Below are positions 3,876 to 64,000 of a DNA stretch of 64,000 bases, piece by piece (position 1 is the first letter of the stretch; every line of letters starts with the position of its first letter). Below the pieces are notes generated by a model. The model did not search any database and had not been told where the DNA came from. It saw nothing but the letters and a program-made list of their open reading frames with translations. The stretch is taken from positions 1,302,001 through 1,366,000 of the forward strand of contig CDLV01000008.1 in NCBI GenBank assembly GCA_001244265.2. Direction: 5' to 3'. The stretch is from Microbotryum violaceum. Taxonomy: Eukaryota. The position numbers and the translations under genes are program-made.

Positions 3876-8590
<4,715 letters not shown>

Positions 8591-8793
8591 ATTTCCCTTG
8601 CAAAACTGCCACTCCTCCTGCCCCCCAGCCTACCTCCAATCAGGGAGTTGCCTACTTCGTTGAAAAATCCTCCGAGTCCCCCAGCTCAGAGACCACCTCT
8701 CCATCCCCAAGCCCTCCTCCGGCCACGCCAAAGTCGATCATAACTCGATCCAAGTCGATTGCCGCCCTCTCCAAGCCAGCCACTCGTGAAGCC

Positions 8794-13226
<4,433 letters not shown>

Positions 13227-16200
13227 AAGCCCCTCCCACTGCGCCTGCCCTCGAAGCCTCCGAGCCGAGCCCCGAGCCGTCTTCGCCCACGCCGTTGCCC
13301 TCAGCCGCGCCCAAAGCCCGACCCGATGACGCCGACACCGACGACGAGGCCGACGAAGAAGCCGAAGACCAAGAAGCACCTCCTAAGGACGTGGAAGACG
13401 CTATGGACCAAGATGATGAGCACAACTAAAATCCAAAACGTGTCTTTTGTTGCTGCCAACGTGCAGTCAATCAATGAAGACCGTAAGCGTGCCTCTCTTT
13501 TCTCCAGTCTCCGCTCCCATAACGCCGACGTCTTTCTCCTGAGCGAAACTGGCCGACCTTCCCCGAAAGGGTGGCCCAGTGGACTCAGGAGTGCCAAGAC
13601 TTAAAGCTCTCCGCCCCTTTTCACTCCTTTCAACAACACTGCCATACTTTGGAAGAGCGACTCCGTGGTCATTGCTTTTGATCCCGAGTCGCCTCCAAAC
13701 ACTCTTCGTGCCTCTTTCTCTTTCCCGGACCGAGTCACCGACGCCACCTTTTGTGTGGGTGATTCAAAAGTCCGGGTTGTATTAATATACGCGCCTTCCT
13801 CCGACAAGCCAGACAAAAACCGCTTCCTCTCACACCTCAGCACCGCCCTCCGACAAGTTGTACGTGACGAACCCTCGCCGCCTGCGCTCCTAGTCGGGGG
13901 GACTGGAATTGTGTTGAGTCCCAGCCCCTCGATTCGGAGAACCAAAACGGAACGAATTATGGGGGTCAGGAGATGCGCGACCTTGCCACGGCCAACAATC
14001 TTTTCGACGCCTATCGGCTCCATCATCCCAAAGGACGAGCCACGACGAATCGCTCAGCGCCCGGCACGTGCCGTCGCCTTGACCGCATCTATGTCTCGCC
14101 TGATTGGGTCGACCTCTTCCATGATCACAAAATTTGGGCTCCTGTCCTCAAATCGACGCACTCAATGGTTGTGGCACGGTTCCAAGTGCCGGGCGCAATC
14201 GACATCGGTCCGGGCAAATTCAAGCTGGGTTTGCACGTGATCGAGGGCGACGCGACCTGCGAGTACCTCACCTCCATTGCGCACCCTTTACAACAAAGCC
14301 TTCCTCCAGACGCCCAACGATCCACCAGCAGCTTGGACGTCCACCAAACACCGCCTGCTGCCCGAGCTGCAGGCTCTGGCCCGGACTTTCGCTCGGCGCG
14401 GCCCTGCGGTCCCGCCTCGACCCATCTCTGGCGGGTCCCTCTTCCATCTTCATCCGCCTGCGCAAAGTGCGAGCATCCGACCTGATCCCTTCGCTCACGG
14501 TCAACGATGTTGTTCATTCCGACCCTGATTCGATGCTTGGAGCGGCCAGCGACTACTTCGAGCGGGTCTATGAGGACCGCCCCATCGATGACGCGGCCCT
14601 GAAGGCGATCATCGACGGCCTCGCTTCAACTCGCCTCTCCCCCGCGGACTCACTCAAGCTCGAGGAAGCGTACCCGTTGGAGGAGATGACAAAGGCTCAA
14701 GCTGCGTTCCTCTGCGCCGTTGGCCTCGGCCCCAAAGCCCGCCAATGGTACGAGCGACCTACACCGACCAATCTGCCTCGATCTTCCTCAACGGTTGGCT
14801 CTCTGCCACTTTCGACATCCTGTCGGGCGTTCGGCAAGGTGATCCTTTGGCTCCGTCTCTCTTCGTCCTGGCGATCGAAGGTTTTGCCTGTCAGATTCGA
14901 TTGAGAGTCAAGGGCATCGATATTGCGGGCCTCCAAATCGTTGGCGAACTCCTTTTTGCCGACGACGCTTGCTGCGCACTCCACAACCTCTCGGACCTCG
15001 ACCACCTCAATCGGGCGATCGAGCTTTACGAACGGGCAAGTGCCAGCAAGCTCAGCAACGTCAAATCTTTCCTCTACCCCTTGGAGCTTTTCGGGATCGG
15101 TCGATCGCCCCAGATCTCGGGACCTGGCGTCTCAGCGATTCGCACTTTCGCTACCTTGGTATTCAGGTCGGGGTGGAGATCGCCGAGGATGCGGGCTGGG
15201 AGGATGTCAAGGCCTTGACCATCGCTCGGATACGCTCGATTCCGATGTACGATCTCCCATATGCAGCCAAGTGTTCGATCATCAACATCTACTGCTACAC
15301 AAAGATCTTGTACTACAGTCGATTCCTTCCCGCCCCAAGAGCGTTGTCACGGAGATCGAGGAGGCCGCCATGCTCGCCATTCATGGTCGAGCTTCGGATG
15401 GTACTCAGCGACGTCCGAAGGTCTCCCGGTCGCGCCTCTGCACCCCTCTTGATCACGGCGGCTTCGGTTTGATTGATCTGCCTCGGCGTCTAGCAATTGA
15501 TCACGCGAAGTGGGTCTTCCAGCTCCGGGCCCCGGACGGCTGCTTCACACGCCACCTCTTCGACATCCGCATCCGCCTCCAGGCACCAAACGAACCAACC
15601 CCTTTCACCTTGTCCAGACCGGCCCCCAACCAGCATCGTTGCCCTTGGATTTGGATCTGGTGGGCTTACTTTTGCCATCCTCCCCCAAAGTGGGACCATG
15701 CGGTGAGAAAAACGACAAAACTTCTTCCTGCTCGTTGGGTCCGATACTTCGAAGCCTGGGCGTTGGTGACCACGCTCAATCCCCCGGAACTCTCCAAGAG
15801 CCAGAACCTCGAGCAATGGGCGACGCACGTACTCTATTTCCCAGCGGGCCACGGAATACAACTCTCGGTAAACCCGACGCTTTTTCGAGGGCCCGATGGC
15901 GAGGTGATGACCCCGTCTTCGTTTGTGAACGCGTCCAAACGCCACCAAGTCTTCATCTTTCCCCCTATCTTCCCCAAGGGACACCAGAAGGTATTCGATC
16001 TGCCTGAGCAACGCTGGAACGCTTGGTGGAAGGCTTTGCGCAAGGTTCGCCGGGTTCACTCGGACGCCGAGGATACCGGCCACCTTCTCTCCCTGGGGTC
16101 CCTCCATCCGGGAAGCCAAGTCGCCTCCCCAACCAGCCCACACCCCAACAATCGATCTACCTCCTGTGTGATGTGCCTCTCGGAAGCACCCGAGTGCCTG

Positions 16201-17094
16201 GTTCACCTCGCGGTCGGCTGCCCATTTGCCCGGCGCCTCTGGTCTGCTCTGTCCCCGACCCCCCACCCAGTCTTTGTGGACTTTGTATGCCCGGTCGTGT
16301 CTCGCTCGGAACGTCGACTTGTCGAACTACGAGTCCTCTTCTTTCACTCGATCTGGAAGCTCTGTCGCCGTCGTCGATTCTCGTCGGATCTTTTGGAACC
16401 GATCATCGAAACGGAGTTCGAGGGGCTTCGAGCCTCTATCCAGGAGTCCAAGGGTCGCCTAGTGTCTCTGTAAGACACCAAAGGGGGTTTTAGTGGGTAT
16501 GGTTGATTCTGGTTCAGGGTCAATGAGTCCTACACTACTGGCTTCTGCCAGTGTGCGTAACAGCATTCCCTCCGACTTTTCCGAAGATTTCTAGGTATTA
16601 ATATAATTATGCTGTTAATGAAGTCTATCAAATAAATAAAAAAGGATACGCCCGCGCGCGCACGTGACATGCGTAAGGATACGCTCGCGCGCAAAGAGCA
16701 CTGGCTGCTGCTGGTGAATAATTGACTCTTTCCGCACACCAGTGGTTGTCAAAGTATCGCCATGCCCATTTTTGCACTAAGTTTAGTTATACATACTATT
16801 GCTGACCGCTATCATAGCCCCTGCTGTACACTACATTAGTGATTGACAAGGCCAAAACTTCACTGGACCACTGGGGCACAACTTTGTGAGTCAAACTTGC
16901 CATCAACATGAATGTTCCCCACTGTGATTTCCTCCAGGAGCACTGCACCGCTGGAAAACATTGTAAGAGGAGAGCATCGTCAGCTCTATTGATCTGCTTT
17001 TTTGGCGTTCTCAACACTCACTATCTCGCATTCATGAAAAAAAGCCGACGCATCTTCCATCTTCCAGACACCTTGTCCTTCTTCAAGAGTCCCT

Positions 17095-28001: not shown

Positions 28002-28267
28002 TGTTAGAAGTGGGGTCTGAGAGCCTAACTCATTGCTATTAGTCTTGGTTAATACTTTATTCTGCGCGCGCGCCTATCTTTGTCTTTGCGTCTTTTTTCC
28101 TTCTGGGTTCCTTCTCCACGCTATTCTCATCATCTCACTCGTGTATCTCGGAGCTGAGTCGTGGAGTACCTCTTAGGTTAGTTACTGCAAAGCCACGCTA
28201 TTCTCATCATCTCACTCGTGTATCTCGGAGCTGAGTCGTGGAGTACCTCTTAGTCCTTGTTGCAACA
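28002..28267 (+). repeat. 3' LTR of copia C (266 bp) with 61-bp direct repeat and intron-like segment 28177-28253
   Basis: Repeat copies at 28116-28176 and 28193-28253; segment reads GTTAGT...TTAG. Confidence 0.95.
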
Positions 28268-28490
28268 GAAGCGACCCAGGTTCGACTCCTGGTCCAGCCG
28301 TTCTTATTCTTTTGTTGATCATTTCGGGATCATCGTTGATTCCAACATGGTGGTACAACCCTGTAGCAGATGAGGCAGATACAATCGATGGGCACAAAGT
28401 CGAAGCTATGACTCGGAGCACCGCGCAACGACTGAGGCCGGCCTGTACCTAGTAGGCTCTGTACAAACGTTGATGTGTGCTGTAGCAATC
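28268..28490 (+). repeat. Left arm of a 223-bp inverted repeat; begins with the 3' half of a tRNA-like unit cut by the copia C LTR
   Basis: Reverse complement of 32006-32228 with few mismatches; contains CCAGG-TTCGACT-CCTGG T-arm. Confidence 0.9.
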
Positions 28491-32005: not shown

Positions 32006-32228
32006 GATTGCTACAGAACACATCAACGTTCGTACAGAGCCTACTAGGTACAGGCCGGCCTCAGTCGTTGCGCGGTGCTCCGAGTCATAGCTTCGACTTT
32101 GTGCCCATCGATTGTATCTGCCTCATCTGCTACAGGGTTGTACCACCATGTTGGAATCAACGATGATCCCGAAATGACCAACAAAAGAATAAGAACGGCT
32201 GGACCAGGAGTCGAACCTGGGTCGCTTC
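32006..32228 (-). repeat. Right arm of the inverted repeat (partner of 28268-28490)
   Basis: Direct sequence comparison. Confidence 0.9.
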
Positions 32229-32268
32229 CATTCATTGGAAAAGCTTTGACCAACTAAGCTATCCGGCC
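32196..32268 (-). ncRNA. tRNA-like Pol III unit with an aberrant anticodon loop (pseudo-tRNA or SINE-like head)
   Basis: GGCCGGA-TA-GCTT-AGTTGGTCA-AAGC-T-TTTCC-AATGAAT-GGAAG-CGAC-CCAGG-TTCGACT-CCTGG-TCCAGCC-G; A box TAGCTTAGTTGG and B box GGTTCGACTCC; T-rich tract follows; loop lacks Y32/U33. Confidence 0.7.
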
Positions 32269-48492: not shown

Positions 48493-50336
48493 ATGAAGTT
48501 TGGACGATACTTGAACCCTAACCCTCTAACCCAACCCTAACCCTCATTCTCGTCCTGGTCTTCTTACTCATTCCCTTACCTATACTCTATCCGTCCGCCC
48601 GGTGGTGGATGATTCGCACGTTCTGCCGTGTGCTCACCGCAGGGTTGATTGCTGTGCAATTCTCTGATTTCTTCCTCGGTGATGAACTCAACTCTCTGTA
48701 TTATTCGGTGAGCTCACGCAGCGGCGGGCTACAGCTGTGCTATTTGAATTTAGCTCAAGCACTTTAACTGCACAGATCACAAATGTGTACGCGCTCGTTC
48801 CTTGATAGTACTGTAGAAACACGATCTGACTCCCCCGCGTTTGATCAGAGGCTTTCTATACTGCGCATACAGTCATTCGTGGCCGTCAGATACCTACGCG
48901 GTATGCTCGCTTAACAAGACATGGGCAAGGTCATTTCATCCCGAGGGATTTTTTGGTATCTCGTCACTGATCAATCGCGTTCGCTCGCAGGCGACCCCTG
49001 TCCTCGCCTCCCTTCTAGCCATCTGGCGTCTGGGACAAAGCTTGCGGCGTTACACCGACTCGGATGGGCTGGTGTAAGCGAAACGATGCATAGCATGCTT
49101 TCCAAGTCTGCAGCTAATGATTATGTTATTACTATTCATATGCTTAACGGTGGCAAGTACACCGCCTCAATCCTTCAGTTCTGTTTTTACTACAGCTGGT
49201 GAGTGCACTTTGAAGCAATTTACCGCATTTAGAGGCTAAGCTGACAACGGTGACGGTGCAGGAGGATCGATGGCTCCACCTCCATCGCCCGCAAAGCGAT
49301 CTGGATGCTGTTTGCTGTGACCAACTCGTGCTACACGGCGACCTGGGGTACGCCGCAGTTTCTTGCGGCTCGGCGCCAACAACAGCACTGACGTACTTGT
49401 CCCTCACTTCCACTGCAGACATCGTTATGGACTGGTCTTTGCTGCAAAAGAACTCGAAGAACTTCTTGTTGCGCAATGAGCTCGGTTTCAGGGATCAAAA
49501 ATAGGCATATTACGTCGCGATTGTTGTCAACATCATACTGCGCTTCTCTTGGGTGATCTACATCACCGACAGCGGGCCCTCTCTCGCATTGAAAGGCTTC
49601 ATCGTTGCTCTTCTCGAAGCATGTCGTCGAATCGTGAGTGTTCCCCCGCACTTTTAGCACCCCCAGCACTTAAATTTTCAGGTCTGGGAGATGCTGATCA
49701 CACCGAGAACCTTGCATCACATCGAGCCAGGTTTGGAACACCTTCCGTGTCGAGTCCGAACACTGCGGAAACGTTGATGGATACCGCGTTACACGCAACG
49801 TGCCCCTCCCGTACACGCCCGCAACCAGTGCGTTCCTTCCCATGCGCACACCCCTGTCGAACTGCTTCAGCGCTCCTGACATTTGCACTGCCTTGCATTC
49901 CCCAGTGCGTCCTCGGGACCATCATGACGACCACGACGATCTCGCTTCGCCTCGCACCCGCAAACAAGTCATCTTCGATTTCCTCCACAGTTTGCACCGA
50001 TCCATCGTCGACAACTTTTCCCCGCTGGCCAATATCTCGCTCTTGCGCATGTCGGCACGCTCCAAGTCGGGCAGTAACAACAAGGGCAAGACCGCTTCGA
50101 GATCGCGCAAAGCCAAAGGGAGTGCCGGTACCACTGCCGAAAGCTCGTCCGAAGATGGTGGTGGCGCCCATTCGAACGACGAAGACGAGGTTGACGATGA
50201 AGATGGTCGTGGCGGGTACAGCGGGAGTGAAGATAGTGCCGACGGCTACGACCTTGGAACGGACAGAATGGTGGAGCAGGAAATTCAACAGGCGGATCTT
50301 ATGATGGACCTGCCGCAGGGCGAAAGACGTCTATGA
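48493..50336 (+). pseudogene. SYG1: SPX-EXS (SYG1/XPR1-like) gene with the SPX domain and first TM region replaced by telomeric repeats
   Basis: ATG 48493 MKFGRYL (SPX N-terminal signature), then CCCTAA-type repeats with an in-frame TAA, then EXS region SARWWMIRTFCRV..VQFSDFFLGDELNSLYYS, LNGGKY, DIVMDWSLLQ..LLRNELGF, NIILRFSWVIY, NVDGYRVTRNVPLPY. Confidence 0.85.
48514..48544. repeat. Interstitial telomeric repeat (CCCTAA/TTAGGG), about 5 imperfect units
   Basis: aaccct aaccct ctaaccc aaccct aaccct. Confidence 0.85.
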
Positions 50337-51594: not shown

Positions 51595-52105
51595 CGTAGG
51601 GGGGGGGGGGATCCCCGCACGTGAACGATAGCAGGTAGAGGCAAGCAAGCCGCCGGCGTGGGTGTGGGACCTCCCCCCACCTCGCCAACTTCGGCAGTAC
51701 CTCGGCGCCCGGATTTTGACGCTGAAAGCCATGAATCGCGAGAATGTGTGCTACCACTGACCAGTCTCCTCGAGGCCGTGTATACGTAGCTAAATCAGAA
51801 GACGCCACCAGGTGTGACGTGAGAACTCAGGGGAGTCGGGAATCGACTCGGGATCTTATAATTAAGATCAGGCGGTATTGAAGGTAGGGGAATCAGAGTC
51901 ACCCACGGATGATCGACGATGCCCTGTGGAATTGGCCGCCGCTAGTCTTCCCGACTTCGGGAATTGCAGGTCCTAGGACTGAGTTGGTCCAAGAGCAATA
52001 ATGATATAACAATAACATGGAAAGAAAGACGAAATAAAGCACATGTAATCGTTGCAACCACTACATCCGAGAATCGATCCGCACAGCCGACCCGACGGTC
52101 ACCGT

Positions 52106-52716
52106 CTACTTGGATCCCGACGAGAATTTTGTGACGGCCTGGAGTATTCGAATGGCGATGGATGTCAGTGAGCGTGGTCGCACGCGAGAGATAATCCAGT
52201 CGCATTACGAAAGGTCTAACCTTCGTGCCTTCCGAGATGGCGTGCTTGGACAGCTCTCCAGGGAGGATCAATCGGACCGAGGTCTGGATCTCGCGCGACG
52301 AGATAGTCGCCTTGTGGTTGTAGGTCGCGAGCTTGCACGCTTCGATGGTGATGCGCTCAAAGATATCGTTGACGAACGAGTTGAGGATCAGCATCGCCTT
52401 GTTCGAGATACCGGTGTCGGGGTGGACTTGCTTCAACACCTTGCTGTGGACGGGCCAAGGCAGGCGCGAGATCCGAGTTCGAGTTCAGGGGTTAGCGACT
52501 GAACCTCAAGCTTGGATGAGCCAATCTCAAAAATACGCACTAGAGGTACGTCGAGAAGGTCTCCTTTCGTTGCTTCTTCTTCTTCTTCTTTTCACCATGG
52601 GCGGCGGGGGCCTTCTTCACAGCCTTCTTGGCGGGCGCCTTGCCAGCGGGCGCCTTGGATGCGGGGGCCTTGCCGGCGGTCGAGGCAGGTTTCTTCTCAG
52701 CAGCTTTGGGGACCAT
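52106..52716 (-). CDS. HTB1: Histone H2B (2 introns)
   Basis: [80 protein letters not shown]; intron 52445-52540. Confidence 0.97.
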
Positions 52717-53742: not shown

Positions 53743-54080
53743 TCATCGGTCGGTATATCCCAGTTCTTGGCTTCGTTATTTTCTTTTTGTTGTACCTTTC
53801 CATCCTTGCGATTGCAACTTGCCTCCTTTTCACAATGGCAAACAAAATCCAGAAACTCAGTTTTAAAGATCGCGAAGCACCAGATCTAATTTGGTAACGT
53901 CTGATCAGTTCAACCTTGAACTTGGAAAACATGTGGTCAAGCGTTGTCCTTTTGGTCGTCACTAGGCGCAGATTTTTTTCCCGAGGTCAGCCTTAATTCG
54001 TCGAGGCAAAAAGATACGGTGGTGTTCCCGGCGTGACGAGGCATGTAATATATATAGAGCACCGGCCAGCAAAAATCATC

Positions 54081-54151
54081 TTCCCCGACGGGGAATCGAA
54101 CCCCGTTCGCGGCTGTGAGAGAGCCGAATCATGCCAATAGACCATCGAGGA
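54081..54151 (-). tRNA. tRNA-Glu(CTC)
   Basis: Acceptor TCCTCGA/TCGGGGA; anticodon arm CGGCT-CT CTC AC-AGCCG; T arm CGGGG-TTCGATT-CCCCG; T5 terminator at 54071-54075. Confidence 0.92.
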
Positions 54152-54217
54152 GTGATGATGAGTGGCAAAATGTCAAATCGATACTCTTCAACAAATTACG
54201 TGATCCCCCCCCCCTAT

Positions 54218-54322
54218 ACTTCACTTCACTTCACTTCACTTCACTTCACTTCACTTCACTTCACTTCACTTCACTTCACTCCACGTCACTTCACTTCACT
54301 TCACTTCACTTCACTTCACTTC
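54218..54322 (+). repeat. (ACTTC)21 microsatellite at the LINE 5' end
   Basis: 105-bp array with two substitutions at 54281-54285. Confidence 0.97.
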
Positions 54323-54383
54323 GAAATCGCCCTACCGCAGTCTTCGATACTCGAGTTAAGTTAACAAGTGATACACCGACAAG

Positions 54384-56661
54384 ATGTCTACAGGAGACCC
54401 TGGGTCCCCACCGCCGGCACCGCCACCACCGGTGTCCGCCACCAGCGTCCAGCCACCCCGCGACCAGATCCCGATAAGCTCGAAGAAGACGCAAGCCACG
54501 GGCCCCGCCACCGCCGCACCCAACTATGCCGCCGCTGCGAGTCAGGCGACTCAGTCACCTGAACAACAGCAACAACAACAACAACAGCGTGCCAAGGCTT
54601 TGGGCAGCCTCCTACAAGCCATGGGTGCTGTACCCGGAAACCGCATGGATCGTTGGGTCCAGGCCATCTACTTCACCGAACTCTACCCCGTCGCCACCGC
54701 CACATCGCTGAAATTCTCGGCCTTGAACGCGAACCGGTCTGTCGAGAACATCTTTGATTACGCCCTTGAAGTGACTCTGTCTCACCAGAGCGCCTCGCGA
54801 GCGTCTCATGCCGACAAGACCGATCTCGTGGCCTGCGTCACGAGGCTGTTATCGCCGATCTCTCCTATCTGCTTTGAGCCTGGAGTTCCTCTGCCGGACC
54901 ACCTTGCAGCCTATCGACCACAGATCCTAGGCGTACAACATTCATCAATCCTGCGTAATGGGGCGGCTCACCATCGCGTTACGGTTGGGTTTGTCACCGG
55001 CGAGGCACGTGACGCTGCGCTTACGACGCCCCCTGCTCTCACTTGGCGATCGGCGAAGGCCCGCTTCGCGAAATCTCACAGGTTCCACCATAACATGGTC
55101 GAGCTTCGAATCAACGTCGGTGTTCAAGGAGTGCCTTCCATGGATGCCATCATCAAATCGTTCCAATTACTAGTGCAGGACTTGTCAGGCAAGGGACATT
55201 CGTGCCAACTTGTGCAGGTTCTGCGCATTATCAGCGTGGACAACGCCTCGGCCTTTGCCCACGTTGCCGGAGACTACTCAGCTTTCCTACACTTCGATGA
55301 CGACTCCCTGTTCAAACGCCCTAACACGACCTTGAAAGAGATCCTACCTTCGAGAATCGGCCTTCCCACTCGAGGCATCCCGGTCACCGCCCTTCGCCAT
55401 GACTATGAGAAGGAGGCGGCTTGCGGTAGGTGCCACTTCGTTGGTCACGTGGGAACCTGCGGACTGGATCAGGAGAGCAAGCGAAAGGAGGCTCACAACG
55501 GCAACGGCAACGGCAACACCAACGCCAACAAGAACACCATCACCAACGACACCAACATTGCGGAGGCCGAGGCCCCATTCCTGTGCCGGTTGTTAACAGG
55601 ATCGCATCACAGAATCGCTTCGCCGGGCTCGAGGTTGAGGAGGGACAGGAGGAAGCGGTAACTGGCCAGAGCGGACAGGGGCCAGAGGAATCGGGGGAGG
55701 AGGACGCTGGTGATAAGGCGGATGACGAGGACTCGGAGGACTCGGAGATGGAATCAGAGGCGACCGTGAAAACGGAGGCCATCATACTTAAGAGCGAGGA
55801 CGAGTCGGTTTTAGAGGACTGCGGAGGATCCGATGGAGAGGTGATTGATGAGGATGAGGTGATGGCGGATGGAAGGGGCGAAACAGAAGGCAAGGTGGCG
55901 ACGGAGATGGAGGAAAGGGAGGTGGCGACGGAGATGGATGAAGAGGAGGTGGCGACGGAGGTGGACGATGTGGACGAGGCAGGGGGAGCGACGAAAGCGG
56001 AGAACGCGGAAGCGACGGACTTAGGGGAGACGAACAGGCTGGGCAATGACGACGACAGCGACGCAACAGCAACCGCCGCCACCGCTTCCCGCGAATCGAC
56101 ACCCCACGAACCAACCCCACCTTTGTCACCCGAAACTCTTGCCAAGTCGCTTCGCGAGGGGAGGAGTGGGACAGGATCAGAGCTAACTGGGTTGAGCAGG
56201 CACGACTCGAGCGGGACCAAAGCATCGAGAGGAGGCTCGACGCTGAAACCCCTTTGGTGCGTCACAACTTTGCCACGTGGGATGAGGACGGTGAGATACG
56301 TTCCATCAATATCAGGGGGACCGCTTCGAAGTTCAAAAAGCCGGTAATGAAGAGGTCGCAGACTGCGGCGGACCTCAGTGACCCGAGTGACGAACCGACC
56401 GACGCCAAGCGAGTGATCATCAAAGGGAAGAGCCGCTTCGTTGTCAAGGATGGAACAGAGGGGCGGAGGGTGACGAGGTCGATGTCAGCGGCGGCGGCGA
56501 TGCCGGTTGGCGTGACGAAAGTGGACCGAGGGAAAGCAAAGGGGGTAGCCGAGGAGAAAAGATGGTCCGACCACGAGCCCGAGGACGATGTCCTGCCCGC
56601 CCTCCCCCTCTTTGAGGACGTCACCACCGCCAAGAGCGCTTCGACCTCAACTACCCATTAA
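54384..56661 (+). CDS. LINE ORF1 (gag-like, zinc knuckle, acidic tail), frameshifted as assembled
   Basis: ORFs 54384-55661, 55430-56347, 56254-56661; [13 protein letters not shown]; shares SLxFSALNA and LRHDYE with the ORF1 at 61544. Confidence 0.8.
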
Positions 56662-59600
56662 TGATTAAGCACACCATCATCACCTGGAACGTGAGGAGGG
56701 GCATGGGGTCCCGGAGAAACGACGTGACATTTACAACTACCTATCCCTTTTCAAAGCATCGGCCATTCTCATACAAGAGCACTTCATCAGACCGCACCTC
56801 TGGCAACTCATCAAGGACGAGTACGAGGGCAAGCTCTTCATCAACCAACATTGTCTGACTCTAATTCCGGCTGACTCCCCCCTGATCGACGCCGAGCTCT
56901 TGCGCACCCACTCGGCACTCGACGGCCGGCTCCTCGTCACGTCCTTTCGTCTGCGGGGCGACATCAAAATTCTAGAAATCAACAACGTTTACGCGCCCGT
57001 TGACCCAAAGCAACGAGCGAAATTCTTTGACAAACTCTTATTTCACAAAACACAGAAATCCCACCTCCGACTCCTTGGCGGTGATCTCAACGACTGCCCG
57101 CGCCCAGAAGTCGATCGGCGGAACCAAAGTCGGCGCGGCCACCACTGGCCAATTCTGATCGGCAAGCTCGACTCGGCCTACACGGACTGCATCCGCTACA
57201 AACACCCCATCACCCCATCCTTCACTCGACCTAATCCCAATCGCAAGCGACCCAACTCCTTCTCCCGGCTTGACTACTTTCTCCTGCAACGGACACACCA
57301 AAAAAGACTCGATCAGGCCTCGACGATCTACGACTATCCCAAGGAGCTTTCCGATCACCGACCGGTCTTGATTGTGCTGGCTCTCTCAGACGATCCTGAT
57401 GCGACCCTCCCACAGCTCAGCCTACCTACCACATCAAACCAACTACATCGAATCAACACCACAACCTTTAAGACGGTGGAATTCCAGCGGATGATGGAAG
57501 GATGGTTGGAAGGGGCAAGCGGGGAGGAACCGGTGGGGGAGCTCGAGGTCATTCTGAAGGCGTGCAGGGATAGGGGTGGGGAGATGGCGAGGAGGTTGCA
57601 TCGGGAGCGGACGGAACGGATGGAGTATTTGGTGGGGAGGGTGCAGGATCTGGAGGCGATACCGGAATGGGGGGAGGGGAAACGGCAGAATGGACAAGGA
57701 CGTCCGAGGAACTCAAGCGGGCGGTCGAGGAGCGCGCGCGCCTACTCCGGATCCGAGCCCACGTACCCGAGATCGCCTCCGAGGAACGACTGTCGCGGCC
57801 GGTCCACGCCAAGCTCGCGGCGCGGAACTCGGACTCCAAGATCACAGCACTGCGCTTGAGCAACGGAGAGCTAACGCATGACATTGATGTCGCTCTTGAC
57901 CACACGCAGGCGCATTTCCAGCGCCTCTACCACATCGAGCCTCGTGACCCGGACCGCGTCGACCGACTTCGGGACGAATTCCTCGCGCCGATCAGGGCGG
58001 CGCGGACTTGCGACGACCCGCGCTCGGATCCTCTCTTTCTGCGCCGACTCTCGGAATCGCAGATCGACTTACTCCAGCGACCAATCACCGAGGACGAGGT
58101 CGTGGCCGCGATCGGGACGACGCACCCGGGGCGATCGCCGGGACCGTCGGGCGTGCCCTACGAACTCTACCAGACCGCACCCAAGGCGTGGGCCAAGGTG
58201 CTGACCAAGGCCTACAACGTGATGATAGAGCGAGGCTCACTCTCTCCCAAGCAGGGCCAAGGACTCGTGCGCCTCATCTTCAAGCGACACAAGAAGAATG
58301 CTGATCGCGCCGAACTTTCGGCGTACCGGCCGATCACCCTGCGCGAGTGCGATTACAAGATCTTTACCAAGGTCTATGTCGCCCGTTTGAACCAAATTCT
58401 ACCGGATCTCCTCCCGCCGCAGCAGCACGGATTCGTCAAGGACCGCCGATCGGCTGACGCTGCACTACACCTTCGTCTCCTGATCGAGGAAGTTGGCGCG
58501 CGCAGGACCGAGTTCCCCGCGGCCGCACTCTTATCTCTTGACCAATCGTCCGCCTACGACCTCGTCGAGCATGACTGGATCTTTGCCATCTTTGACGCTC
58601 TGGGCGCTCCTGCCACCTTTCTTCGCGTGCTGAGGATGCTCTACTCGGGTGACTCGACCTCGGCCCGCTACATCATCAATGGGTTCTTGACGGCGCCGGT
58701 ACGACTGACGTGTGGGCTCGGCCAAGGGGACCCGGCGTCGTCGTCGGTCTGGGACATCGTGTTTCAGCCGTTTCTGGATGCTCTACACCGTCGAAACATC
58801 GCGCTGAATCTCTCCATACCTGCACTTCATCCGTACCCACAGAGCCGCGCCATTACATCGCTTGCTTTTGCCGATGACGTTGTCGTCGCCGTCGCGGGCT
58901 TGGGGTCACTCAACTTGCTCGATGACCTGGCGCTCGACTGGAGGCATGCAACGAATGGCCGGCTCAACACGGACAAGACGGTCGTCCTACCGATCGGACG
59001 CCGCTGGGACCCGGGGCAACGCCCGCTCGTCGTCAAGGCCGCAGGCGAGTCGCTCGAGTGGATCGGCCTCCCCTTCGACCCGAGCGGCGACACCGAACTC
59101 GCCTACGCGAATCTCATCGAACGCCTCGAGGCGACGCTGGAAGGGGTTCAGCATCGCTGGCTCACACACCACACCCGTGCCTTTTACGTCAATCGGTACG
59201 CCATCCCCAAGATCCTGCACTTCCTTGCAGCCGACATCCCGCCGCCCGAAGTCGTCAAGAAGCTCGATGACATGCTCGTCGATTTCGTCCGTGGGGGCAA
59301 GGGCAGGACCAGCTACGGCAGAGATATCGTGTTCACAGCCAAGCTCAAGGGGGGACTCGGGGTGATCAGGATGCAGGACGTCGTGGACGCGGTTGCGGCA
59401 CGGATCTGGGACGTTCTTCTCGGCGGTTCGGGCGCGATCTGGCAAGGACTTGCGCGCGTGGCACTCCAGCGAGCTCAGTCCGACCTCGACCTGGCCACCG
59501 ATCTCTGGCCACATCCATCCACTCCCATCCCCAGCGACCTCCATCCCCGATGGCGAGCAGCATTGGGGGTTCCGAAACAGCAAGACGCGCAGGTCAACCC

Positions 59601-60733
59601 GAGGACCTTGACCACCGCGAACCTGCTCGCGCTTCCCACCTTGCTCGGCAGCCTCCACACCCCCATCAGAGGGAGACAGACCATCGACGCGGTTCATATA
59701 CCTGACTACCTTCGTCTCCAGGGCTACCCGAAGGTGGCGGATCTCTACCGGCGCGAGTTGTATGCGGGTGGGGGTTTCACCTTTGGACGCCGCCGGCGGA
59801 TGTGCTCGGCGACAACAGCGAGTACGATCGACGCGGGCTCCCGCAGCGACTGGCAATCGCGGCCTGGTACCGGTTTACTGTCGATCGACACAAGAACACG
59901 CCCTTGGCGGTGGCGGTGGCGGCAGGACGGCTCAACGTGCCTCCCCGGATCGGCACCAGCGCACCGCTCGAGGCGATTCTCCCCAAGCCCGTGGCCCGCT
60001 TCGCAATGGAGCAGCGCCTTCCGGACCCGGTGCTTCCACAGCAGGCGAGCCAGTACAAGCTGCTGAACATGGCTCGACCGTACACCATCCGTCGCATCCG
60101 CCGGGTCCTGAACGCGAAGGCCTTTACCAACACGCTCGGGCTCAAGGGACCACCGCAGCCGGACGACCTCAGGAGCTTTTGGAAGGCGGTCAACTCGAAG
60201 GCACTGACGGCGAGGGAGAGGGAAGTTTGGTTCAAGCTGATTCTCCGCTTCACCCCGACGCGCAAGCTGCAACACCAACAGAATCACGACACTTCTCCGC
60301 GTGCTTCGTCTGCGAAGCGCCGGTGGACGACACCGACCACTACTTTTTCGACTGCGTTGACTCTGGGAACGTTTGGATCGCGGCAAGGAGCGTGCTCTGC
60401 GACGCACTGGGGCTCGACACGATCGACAACACGCATTACACGGCTGTTCAACGCATGTTCGGACTTCCGAAGCTCAAGGCCAGTCTACGCGATCAAGAAG
60501 GAGCGGGGAGGACGATCGAAATATTCACCGGGCTGGTCTTGGAGATGATCAGCAGCGGGAGGTGGGGGATGCAGAAGTGGGGGACGAAGATGGAGGGTGT
60601 TGTGAGGAGGAGGATCATCTTGGAGGAGAGGTTGAAGCTGAGGGCGGGAGGAGCTTGGGGAGGAGAGGGCAGTAGAGGCTGGGTTCGACTTTCCCCCACC
60701 ACCACCACACACACACACACCAAATTCTCGTGA
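56661..60733 (+). CDS. LINE ORF2 (APE endonuclease, reverse transcriptase, zf-RVT), frameshifted as assembled
   Basis: [90 protein letters not shown]. Confidence 0.92.
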
Positions 60734-61335
60734 CATCATTTTCTCCTACTGTACACTAAATAGATCGCTTTCATCTTTCATTTGTTACAGGTTCACCGTT
60801 GCGGATCATGGACCATCTCGCGATTTGGCGTCGACTCGGTGTGGCTCGCGCTCTTCGGCTTCGGGGTTCTGAGTCAAGGGAGGGATCAGCGGACACAGGC
60901 AGAAAGTCGGCTTTGAGGGGCCAGGGACTGCCGATGGGGGAGGTTTTGAGGGACCTTCACCGCGTCTTGTTGTGACTGAGCAGAGACTTGGAGCGTCGAG
61001 GGTCGTGGTGGTTGCGCAGTCGTGCTCTTGTCTTCGTCTCGACCGAGTGGGAAGTGGCTGTGGGGTGGGCCTTCTGTCGTTAGTACATTTCTTTTCTTTC
61101 TTTTTTTCTCTTCATCTCTCTTTCTCTCTCTCATTAGTCTCCTGGGGGGGAGCAACCGCTTGGCTAGGGCATTTGAATCCGAATCTCGGATTGGTGGACT
61201 TGGCTCGTTTCTCGCACTTTTGCGGGCGGTTTGTGTTATCATCGTAGTCTTCCATCTAGTTTTTCCGTAGGCCAAAACAGGGGGAACAGGAACTGGGGGC
61301 AATATGATGAACGTTTTCTACAAAAAAAAAAAAAA

Positions 61336-64000
61336 TATAGTCTCTTTCATCTTTCATCTTTCATCTTTCATCTTTCATCTTTCATCTTTCATCTTTCATC
61401 TTTCATCTTTCATCTTTCATCTTTCATCTTTCATCTTTCATCTTTCATCTTTCATCTTTCATCTTTCATCTTTATCGCACTACCCTACCTCGGCAAACGT
61501 CAATACATCGAATACATCAACCGCTACATCAGCTATCGACCCAATGTCCGACCAGGCACCGCCTGATCCGGGCCGCGGCCCTCCGGAGCCGGCAGCGACG
61601 GGGCAACCACGTGGTGACGCGGGGGCGGAGGCCGATGCCGCCGAGGGACCAGGGAACCCCGGCCTAGCGCTGTACCAGGAAAAGCGTGATGAAGAGAAGA
61701 AGAGGAAGGAGGATGTCGCGAGGATCCTGAAGATGATCAGTGTCGAAGATGGCACACGCCAGGGCACCCGCATCCTTGTGCTCAAAGAAGCACTCGGCTT
61801 CGGCAAGGACCGGGCCACCTCCCTGCGCTTTAGCGCACTCAATGCAACGAAACCAATCGCCGACACGTCTGGTGCCGTTCTTGAAGTCACGTTCGAACAC
61901 ACCGGTGTGGCCACTGAACGCGAGAAGTCCGAGTTGTACTCGAAGGTGCTCCGTACCCTGTCGCCCGACACGTCGTTGTGTTTTAACCTGCCCGCAGGAG
62001 TTGTCCTCCCCCCGAGCTCCAGAAATACGCTCCAGTCATCCATGGAGTCGCACCGGAGTCGATCATCCAAAACGGCAACACCCGGTTCAAGTTCGTGGTG
62101 CGCTGCGCTAGCGCAGCGGCGCTCGACCAAGTCCACGACGCGGCGACCAAGATCGAGTGGAAACGCTCCTTTGCCCAAGTCCGCAAGCGCTTGGCGTTCG
62201 TCAAGAACGTCGTCGAACTGCGTTTCATCATCAGTCCTGAGGCTGAATACACGAATGACGACCTCTGGAGCAAACTGCAAGGCGTCGTCGCCAAGCTTAC
62301 CGGGGACGGCCACAAATGCGACTTGCTCCAACTCCAGCAGCCTCTAACAGTCGTTCAAGGCTCGTATCTCGTTGCTCGAGGAAACTACGCGGCCATCGTC
62401 CAGTTCGAGGACGACGATCTGTTCAAAAACAACGGTGCTCAACTTCGACAGGTTCTACCGACGAGGATCGACCTTCGAGGACGACTCGCAACTCTCACCC
62501 CCCTTCGCCACGACTACGAGGCCGAAGCCTCCTGCCGCCGATGCGGTTTTGTAGGCCACTCCGACAACTGCGTTCAAAAGCCGGTCCAGCGTCAGCAGGC
62601 CGCCCAGAAAAATAACAACAACCAAAGGCCCCAGGCCGAGCCCCAAAGCAGCATCGAGCAAACCTCGACCCCCCAAAAACAACGCAGAGGTGATGTAGCC
62701 TCTCCCTCTCCCCAATGTCCCCTGTCGCGTCCAAGCGTTCAAAGAAGAACGCATCTCCCACAAGGGCCACTAACAACTCACCACGAGTCTACCCTGCTCG
62801 TTCACAAAGCTCTACACCCACAGCATCCGCCCTTTGCGGTTTCATCGTCGCCGCAAACCCATTCGCAAGTCTGGCCGGCGACGTGGCCGAAGAGGCGCAG
62901 GGGGAGCCCGCTCAGGCTCTCGAGGACGACGAGGACGCGATGAGCGTAGTCGAGGCACAGCTGGAACCACAGCAGGAGGTGCCGCCGTTGGAGCCTTCGG
63001 ATCTGTCGGATCTGCAGGACCGCGGAGCGGAGGGGAACCAGGAGGAACACACGGAGACGAGTGACGCGGAAGAAGGGGAATCGCAGTCGGCCGAGACGGG
63101 GTCTATGCCTGAGGTTGTCTCGACGACCCCTGAGCTGACGCGGTTCCGATCGGCCAGTCACCATCAGCTTGATATGGACGGCCTTCCTGACGACTGGATG
63201 AATCGTGTGTCGGATCGCGAGCGCAAACAGGATGCCGGTCTGTACGATGAGATCACCGAGTTGGACCGCACCCCGTCTGTGACCGGTTGGATGCCTTCGC
63301 CGTCTCCAGGTCCAGTGTGTGATCCCGAGCCCGAGCCCAAGCAGGAGGTGGAAGAAGGAACTTCCCAGGGTCTTCGCCGGTCCGAGCGTATCCAGCGTCT
63401 CACCAGCGTTGCGCGCACATCGGACTGGAACGAATCGACTGCTGCGGACCCTCTCCCGTCACCCACATTCGGACCTATGTTGTCCATCAAGGGAGCTGCT
63501 GCTGCAACGAAGGCGCAATCGTAATGATTGACTTCATCATCATGACCTGGAACGTCAACAGGGGCTTCAATACCCCTGAACGACGTCGTCTGCTTCTTTC
63601 GTATCTCACTTCGCTCACACCTCCCCCTTCTGCTATCCTTCTCCAGGAACATAATGTTCCTAAAGCACGACAATCTCACATACGCCACGAGTACGCCCAG
63701 TCCCACCAGGGCGAGGCCTACTTTTCTCAACACTGCCTCACTTTGATTCCAAGCTCTTCTCCTCTTCTCGGTGGTCATCGTCGCACGCGTCAGTCTCTTG
63801 GCGGGCGCTTACTCGTGACCACCTTCGATGTGCGGGGTTCGACGGACGTCGTCGAACTCAACAATATCTACGCTCCGGTTCAACCCGCCGAGCGCCTCCT
63901 CTTCTTCACCTCCCTTCACTTTCGGGCGACCGTCTCCTCTCACATTCGGTTCATCGCGGGCGATCTGAACGACTGCCCTATTCCCGCGGTGGATCGAGCG
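61336..64000 (+). mobile_element. Second, diverged L1/Tx1-like LINE in tandem; runs off the window end
   Basis: Starts right after the A14 tail; 5' microsatellite; ORF1 61544-63524 (MSDQAPPDPG; CRRCGFVGHSDNC); TAATG at 63522-63526; ORF2 MTWNVNRG, LQEH, NIYAP, AGDLND. Confidence 0.92.
61345..61470 (+). repeat. (TTTCATC)18 tandem repeat at the LINE 5' end
   Basis: Perfect 7-bp array of 126 bp. Confidence 0.97.

Follow-up and report, generated by a model that had tools for sequence, protein, structure and literature searches.

Retrotransposons lacking long terminal repeats (non-LTR retrotransposons) that target genes which RNA polymerase III (Pol III) transcribes are listed in a 2018 review for dictyostelids only, namely TRE5, TRE3, NLTR-A and NLTR-B (PMC5911963). 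According to this review, TRE5 elements lie 40-54 bp upstream of tRNA genes in opposite transcriptional orientation, and the product of their first open reading frame (ORF1) contacts TFIIIB (PMC5911963). In Dictyostelium discoideum, 61% of the tRNA genes were reported to bear a TRE (PMC5006619). Full-text literature searches for fungal cases returned no tRNA-targeting fungal non-LTR element. The locus described here lies in a stretch of 64,000 nts of the basidiomycete Microbotryum violaceum (assembly GCA_001244265.2, contig CDLV01000008.1, positions 1,302,001 to 1,366,000 of the forward strand), which is referred to below as the window and numbered from its first letter. Near its end, an intact tRNA-Glu gene is faced by the 5′ end of a full-length, inactive long interspersed nuclear element (LINE1), on whose tail a second element of a sister family (LINE2) directly follows. 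This arrangement may reflect a TRE5-like, Pol III-directed integration of these LINEs, a reading to which a probability of roughly 0.4 can be given.

An earlier note on this DNA had placed a tRNA-Glu on the minus strand with its 5′ end at 54151, a LINE starting at about 54215 with its 5′ end toward the tRNA, and a second, diverged LINE in the same orientation on the A14 tail of the first, with no target-site duplication visible in the window. ARAGORN and the Rfam tRNA model confirm the first of these claims, and the others hold as well: LINE1 begins with TATA at 54215 after a spacer of 63-66 nts, LINE2 begins with TATAGTC at 61336 right after the A14 tail, and the only candidate for a target-site duplication is the 4-nt TATA, too short to be meaningful. 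What had been called a tandem array is correct in that two LINEs are stacked, but only two elements are visible within the window and both are dead. The upstream placement, orientation and TFIIIB contact that the note stated for TRE5 match the 2018 review, which gives 44-54 bp in one place and 40-54 bp in another (PMC5911963). The only other copy of the LINE1 family that was found, L001, is carried by a 12.4-kb metagenome contig and serves below for comparison. The features of the locus are the following.

54071..54075, minus strand: T5 run, 5 nts past the tRNA-Glu 3′ end, read from the sequence
54081..54151, minus strand: intact tRNA-Glu, anticodon CTC (ARAGORN; Rfam tRNA, 48.8 bits, E=2e-9, model positions 1-71)
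54152..54214, no strand: spacer from the tRNA 5′ end to LINE1, 63 nts, unique, ending in C10 (54205-54214)
54215..61335, plus strand: LINE1, full-length L1-like non-LTR retrotransposon, inactive, with a 5′ untranslated region (UTR) in common with L001 and Exo_endo_phos and RVT_1 domains
54215-54218: TATA at the LINE1 start
54218..54322, plus strand: LINE1 5′-terminal tandem repeat (TTCAC)21, 105 nts (TRF: period 5, 21 copies, 96% matches)
54384..56640, plus strand: LINE1 ORF1, with two frameshifts (three frame segments against the open L001 ORF1)
56705..60670, plus strand: LINE1 ORF2, with apurinic/apyrimidinic (AP) endonuclease, reverse transcriptase (RT) and C-terminal Cys-rich region; three frameshifts
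61322..61335, plus strand: LINE1 A14 tail
61336..64000, plus strand: LINE2, a LINE from a sister family, of which the 5′ part lies before the window end
61343..61473, plus strand: LINE2 5′-terminal tandem repeat (TCTTTCA)18.7 (TRF: period 7, 100% matches)

Two tRNA genes of the window are called by ARAGORN, namely tRNA-Ser(tga) and tRNA-Glu(ctc), and both are on the minus strand. The Rfam match of the tRNA-Glu was obtained in a search restricted to 53800-54400 (601 bases), while the whole-window Rfam run at the gathering threshold returned a single match, the tRNA-Ser, and missed the 48.8-bit tRNA-Glu; hence, negative whole-window Rfam results do not equal absence here. With a T5 run downstream, a likely Pol III terminator, the tRNA-Glu resembles a working Pol III gene. 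Other candidates were discarded. The Pro call of the ARAGORN intron mode, with a 1013-nt intron, is implausible, the Ser(gga) and Leu(taa) calls of the same mode (28152-28300 and 49612-49726) were rejected as lacking Rfam support, Rfam gives no tRNA at either of the B-box-like motifs at 28279 and 44682, and relaxed ARAGORN thresholds yielded only noise.

LINE1, on the plus strand, and the tRNA-Glu, on the minus strand, stand head-to-head with adjacent 5′ ends and, as in TRE5, are transcribed in opposite orientations, the tRNA 5′ end being separated from the TATA by 63 nts and from the repeat by 66 nts. A 62-nt leader connects the repeat to ORF1, whose ATG is at 54384. ORF1 matched no Pfam family; its counterpart in L001 (P0121) is open over 806 codons and, as read by eye, has a Cys-X2-Cys-X4-His-X3-Cys motif as well as an acidic tail of some length. 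In ORF2, Pfam identifies Exo_endo_phos (E=2.5e-7) and RVT_1 (E=6.5e-21), together with a weak zf-RVT match under the curated cut-off, and a Pfam search found no RNase H domain in LINE1. The four frame segments of ORF2 are 88-89% identical to an intact ORF2 of 1325 amino acids from Microbotryum intermedium. Compared with intact relatives, LINE1 thus bears at least five frameshifts, and LINE2 bears at least one in ORF1, the densities being similar in both elements; these frameshifts make both copies dead. LINE1 ends with a 3′ UTR of about 590 nts, inside which, near 60770, two units of the LINE2 repeat are found.

The 5′ end of LINE1 is complete in the light of L001, which extends from a 5′ repeat through to a poly(A) tail and, apart from an internal deletion, is identical to LINE1 at 77% of nts over 4.3 kb and 85% over 1.9 kb. 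L001 also opens with a repeat, of (TTTCAC) type (2879-2905), followed by the LINE1 leader motif. Since this repeat is at the same place in an element inserted into a Copia gag gene, and is absent from that gene, it is part of the element, and its likeness to the window repeat shows that nothing is missing from the 5′ end of LINE1. As such repeats move together with the element, LINE1 did not merely land in a microsatellite. In addition, the LINE1 5′ repeat, (TTCAC)n, differs from what follows its 3′ end, A14-TATAGTC-(TCTTTCA)n, which is not the pattern of a microsatellite-specific LINE.

LINE2 opens with TATAGTC (61336-61342) directly after the LINE1 A14, with no intervening flank. Its Exo_endo_phos domain is detected by Pfam (E=2.7e-5), and its leader has a short motif in common with that of LINE1. 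Between the two families, ORF1 is 29-32% identical and the endonuclease 47%. If LINE1 and one TATA were removed, the LINE2 repeat would come to lie about 67 nts from the tRNA-Glu, which places two families at one measured position. It is worth noting that each LINE of this clade has its own 5′ short-unit repeat (TTCAC x21 in LINE1, TCTTTCA x18.7 in LINE2 and TTTCAC about x5 in L001), repeat unit and copy number varying between copies while the leader motif that comes after the repeats is conserved. Such repeats might, for instance, have arisen when the RT slipped on reaching the 5′ end of the RNA.

Both elements belong to the L1-like LINEs. In LINE1, an N-terminal AP endonuclease precedes the RT in ORF2, ORF1 lies upstream of ORF2 and the 3′ end is a poly(A), with tails of A14 in LINE1, A10 in L001 and A16 in LINE3, a further element of the window. 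The best relative of the intact homologue P0003 in the PDB is the human LINE-1 ORF2p (E=1.4e-22, residues 92-732, covering endonuclease and RT), which ranks above R2 proteins and identifies the elements as L1-like. Among the best 120 of 123 protein matches with E<=0.001, the closest are all from Microbotryum, with 99% to 54% identity, and the more distant ones are from other Microbotryomycetes yeasts; outside this class, the identity of the listed matches is at most 30%. Chlorella proteins 28-30% identical bear the name ‘Transposon TX1’, which, like the PDB ranking, is no more than a hint of a place within the L1 or Tx1 clade. LINE1 and LINE2 are ordinary representatives of LINE families already known from Microbotryum, whose proteins carry no annotation beyond ‘hypothetical’. 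In M. intermedium, P0003 (89% identical to LINE1 ORF2) and P0024 (88% identical to LINE2) have locus tags 5 apart on one 2.5-Mb contig, a hint at a conserved or recurrent LINE1-LINE2 tandem there.

If integration was directed by Pol III, two L1-like LINEs of sister families would have entered the same spot, about 63-67 nts upstream of the tRNA-Glu, with their 5′ ends toward the tRNA. As in Dictyostelium TRE5, target-primed reverse transcription would have been guided by the transcription complex of Pol III and not by a DNA sequence, perhaps by contact with TFIIIB or TFIIIC, and the position would then be a chosen one. LINE2 would have come first, and LINE1 would have been inserted later at the same distance, displacing LINE2 outward. 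With the tRNA gene, the 60 nts upstream of it and the terminator all left intact, the site would offer a safe harbour within a compact genome. In its wider form, which can be put forward only tentatively, the proposal is that a Microbotryum L1-like LINE lineage integrates about 60-67 nts upstream of tRNA genes, perhaps of tRNA-Glu, head-to-head and with stacking, and that its transcripts are able to begin within the tRNA and so bring an antisense tRNA half to new sites; such a lineage would have arisen independently of the dictyostelid TREs and be the first in fungi.

The geometry would be rare under random insertion. With the 134 tRNAs and 392 LINE copies of a published genome analysis (PMC4469406), 0.02 oriented junctions per genome would be expected by chance in a 20-nt window. 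This assumes uniform insertion and a genome of about 26 Mb.

Relatives were sought with a profile of 15 ORF2 sequences, which gave six loci from 100 pattern matches in metagenome contigs and none in prokaryote genomes (0/123 pattern matches) or viral contigs (0/63). For the locus itself, 22 sequencing runs were listed, 19 of them containing at least half of the sampled words, from 7 studies and 3 organism codes; these shares carry no information on copy number or empty sites. In L001, a true second copy of the LINE1 family, 97 nts (2782-2878) that are foreign to the Copia gag gene separate gag from the LINE repeat. On the strand opposite the LINE, this leader contains TGGTCTAGTGG, which agrees with the A-box of the window tRNA-Glu at 10 of 11 bases, and by eye it is preceded by seven bases starting with TCC, plus a T, and followed by a possible 4-bp D-stem. 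The tRNA start implied in this way lies 61 nts from the LINE repeat; LINE1, with the same orientation, has 66 nts. With one free position, TGGTCTANTGG occurs only twice in the 108.7 kb of sequence analysed, counting both strands, in the L001 leader and in the window tRNA-Glu. The leader is thus suggestive of a tRNA-Glu-like relic of an A-box and D-arm, to which the covariance model lends no support. If the relic is real, it fits a descent of L001 from a source located 61 nts upstream of another tRNA-Glu-like gene, with a transcript that started inside the tRNA. The window spacer and the 61 nts of L001 show no similarity (local score of 10, equalled in 1871 of 2000 shuffles), and since the two spacers are unrelated, the leader, if derived from a tRNA, would come from a different tRNA locus. 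The LINE-proximal 25 nts or so of the leader resemble gag sequence 13 nts beyond the other junction (9023-9050) at about 70% with gaps. A longer target-site duplication for L001 was considered on this account and rejected, as the likeness is imperfect, offset by 13 nts and not clean.

Several results weigh against targeting. Only one locus clearly adjoins a tRNA, and the distances known, 63-66 nts in the window and 61 nts to the doubtful L001 relic, amount to one clear and one doubtful case. Of the two LINE1-family copies, one is next to an intact tRNA, and the same is true for one of six readable LINE 5′ junctions (LINE1, LINE2 and LINE3 in the window, and L001, L002 and L003 elsewhere); LINE2 would count as a second tRNA-adjacent junction only if LINE1 was inserted after it, and no target-site duplication fixes this order. 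L001 splits the Copia gag frame, the gag N-terminus being found just past its A10 tail and the remainder upstream, and no tRNA was found by ARAGORN (default) or Rfam (E<=0.1) in 2.9 kb upstream and 3.3 kb downstream of it, nor anywhere else in the 12.4-kb contig. The spacing of the gag motif in this contig agrees with that in two Copia elements of the window. L002 and L003, both 5′-truncated, belong to remote families whose RTs agree with that of LINE1 at 45% and 49%, and ARAGORN and Rfam detect no tRNA within 3 kb and 10 kb upstream of them, respectively. In L003, a 14/14 match to the tRNA-Glu anticodon arm (9898-9911, minus strand, BLAST E=0.008) about 80-90 nts before the truncated LINE was discounted, because it is of CT/CA-rich low complexity, leaves tRNA positions 1-26 unmatched and coincides with no ARAGORN or Rfam tRNA. 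In the window, LINE3 (truncated, on LINE4) and LINE4 are without a tRNA, and no LINE sequence is found upstream of the tRNA-Ser at 32196-32268. The L001 leader itself gives no Rfam tRNA match, even on stretches cut for truncated matches; its ungapped agreement with tRNA-Glu positions 1-26 is 15/26, tied with three other L001 sites, and its gapped score is equalled at 23 of 24,716 positions, so that such a site would fall within a 21-nt interval on the right strand with a probability of about 0.003 to 0.02, assessed post hoc. Finally, as transposons occupy about half of the window, accidental adjacency becomes likelier, and an insertion into poly(A) of the kind made by Zorro3, an L1-type LINE of Candida albicans, would account for the tandem without any targeting. 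The safe-harbour system proposed in the earlier note is thus partly supported: the geometry fits that of TRE5, while the sample of junctions is mixed (1/6), L001 being in a Copia gag gene and yet bearing a possible tRNA relic at the matching distance.

The strongest alternative, nearly as probable as targeting, is that LINE1 landed by chance near the tRNA in a transposon-rich and probably low-recombination region, and that LINE2 then inserted into the LINE1 poly(A) in the manner of Zorro3, with no Pol III targeting. At least seven transposon copies, LINE1 to LINE4 and three Copia elements or relics, make up roughly half of the 64 kb, as compared to a transposon share in M. lychnidis-dioicae of 14% for the whole genome and 41% for its non-recombining region (PMC4469406). 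The 5′ flank of LINE2 is A14, and Zorro3 was described to integrate into poly(A) tracts (PMC7175516). L001 shows that the LINE1 family can integrate away from tRNA genes, a LINE is present at one of the two solid tRNAs of the window, an intact tRNA at one of the six readable LINE 5′ junctions, and the locus was drawn from a very large scan, in which rare coincidences are to be expected. However, even with this many transposons, an oriented junction arising by chance within a 20-nt window has a probability of about 0.002 by our own arithmetic (7 copies, 2 tRNAs, 64 kb), a preference for poly(A) leaves LINE1 unexplained since its 5′ flank is C10, and the L001 leader has an A-box-like motif at a matching distance and on the matching strand.

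It is improbable that the tandem arose in a single event, in which the RT would have copied the LINE2 RNA to its 5′ end and jumped to the LINE1 poly(A), the resulting head-to-tail dimer being inserted once, whether aimed or not. The absence of any flank between the LINE1 A14 and the first bases of LINE2, as well as the similar frameshift densities of both elements, would be consistent with it, and the L1-type RT of the fungal element Zorro3 was reported to switch templates in S. cerevisiae (PMC7175516). Nevertheless, the RNAs of two families with proteins 29-47% identical would have to meet in one particle, and another LINE follows the poly(A) in one of three tails (LINE1, LINE3 and L001). Least likely of all is a long-lived master copy upstream of a tRNA-Glu, whose transcripts would start in the tRNA and whose progeny would carry an antisense tRNA half, so that the association would be inherited and not targeted: L001 did bring a tRNA-like leader into the Copia gag gene and both tRNA-like sequences are of Glu type, but the window tRNA is complete, with B-box and terminator, and not a half, and the spacers are dissimilar though the LINE bodies are 77-85% identical, which requires at least two loci.

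The remainder of the window contains the following features.

about 3876 to at least 8580, minus strand: LINE3, 5′-truncated, abutting LINE4
8560-8793 and 13230-16500, plus strand: LINE4, a non-LTR element of another clade, split by a Copia insertion (RT at about 14.6-15.2 kb)
8794-13226: Copia LTR retrotransposon with LTRs of about 375 bp, 100% identical (8794-9167 and 12851-13226)
about 18.5-19.7 kb and 23.3-27 kb: two further Copia elements or relics
32196-32268, minus strand: tRNA-Ser(tga) (ARAGORN and Rfam)
about 33-53 kb: ordinary genes, including a histone gene (51945-52484)

The family to which LINE3 is 95-97% identical has protein clusters with 31-53 members each. Between LINE3 and LINE1, the RTs are only 47% identical, but the last 200 nts or so of the 3′ UTR are 79% identical in DNA between the two (3941-4133 and 61095-61303), which could reflect a common 3′ recognition module or recombination between families. 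LINE4, which meets LINE3 head-to-head at the truncated 5′ end of the latter, has an RT 24% identical to that of LINE1, finds its best matches in unnamed ENA proteins at about 30% and shows the end of an acidic ORF at 13232-13440. The Copia element at 8794-13226 has a 97-bp unit x1.8 in each LTR, largely open gag-pol ORFs and a 5-bp duplication, AAGCC, on its flanks (8789-8793 and 13227-13231), and gives the impression of having entered older LINE debris very recently.

If the landing beside the tRNA was accidental, this is a common accumulation of dead transposons. If Pol III-directed integration is confirmed, it would represent a second, independent origin of tRNA targeting by non-LTR elements beside the dictyostelids, would allow comparing how LINEs find the Pol III complex in two kingdoms and would provide a natural safe-harbour integration system in genetically tractable fungi.

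Among the known systems, D. discoideum TRE5-A, as portrayed in the 2018 review, is similar in its two ORFs, in the AP endonuclease, RT and zinc-binding region of ORF2, in its oligo(A) tail and in a 5′ end turned toward the tRNA in opposite orientation, a few tens of nts upstream (PMC5911963). It differs by its distance of 40-54 nts, against 63-66 nts here, by an A-module in place of the short tandem repeat and by its host, the present one being a basidiomycete; moreover, the association with tRNA genes is established family-wide for TRE5, while a single clear locus is known here. NLTR-B of Polysphondylium pallidum, described in the same review at 39-64 bp upstream of tRNA genes, has a range that extends to the distance of LINE1, but possesses an RNase H domain, of which LINE1 gave no match, and three separate ORFs (PMC5911963). 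Zorro3 of C. albicans is a fungal L1-type LINE with a zinc-finger region in ORF1 that integrates into poly(A) (PMC7175516). Such integration would explain the position on the LINE1 A14 tail of LINE2, whose 3′ end lies beyond the window. The 5′ UTR of Zorro3 is very short, however, and poly(A) flanks it on both sides, unlike LINE1 with its C10 flank and unlike LINE1 and LINE2 with the long repeats at their starts. Ty1, Ty3 and other Pol III-targeting LTR elements also follow the logic of a safe harbour, which in the compact genomes of fungi lies upstream of tRNA genes, as the 2018 review describes (PMC5911963), although they are of another element class, in which an integrase inserts double-stranded cDNA. 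Targeting of tRNA genes by the Microbotryum LINEs would hence be a behaviour of a known kind that is possibly new for fungi.

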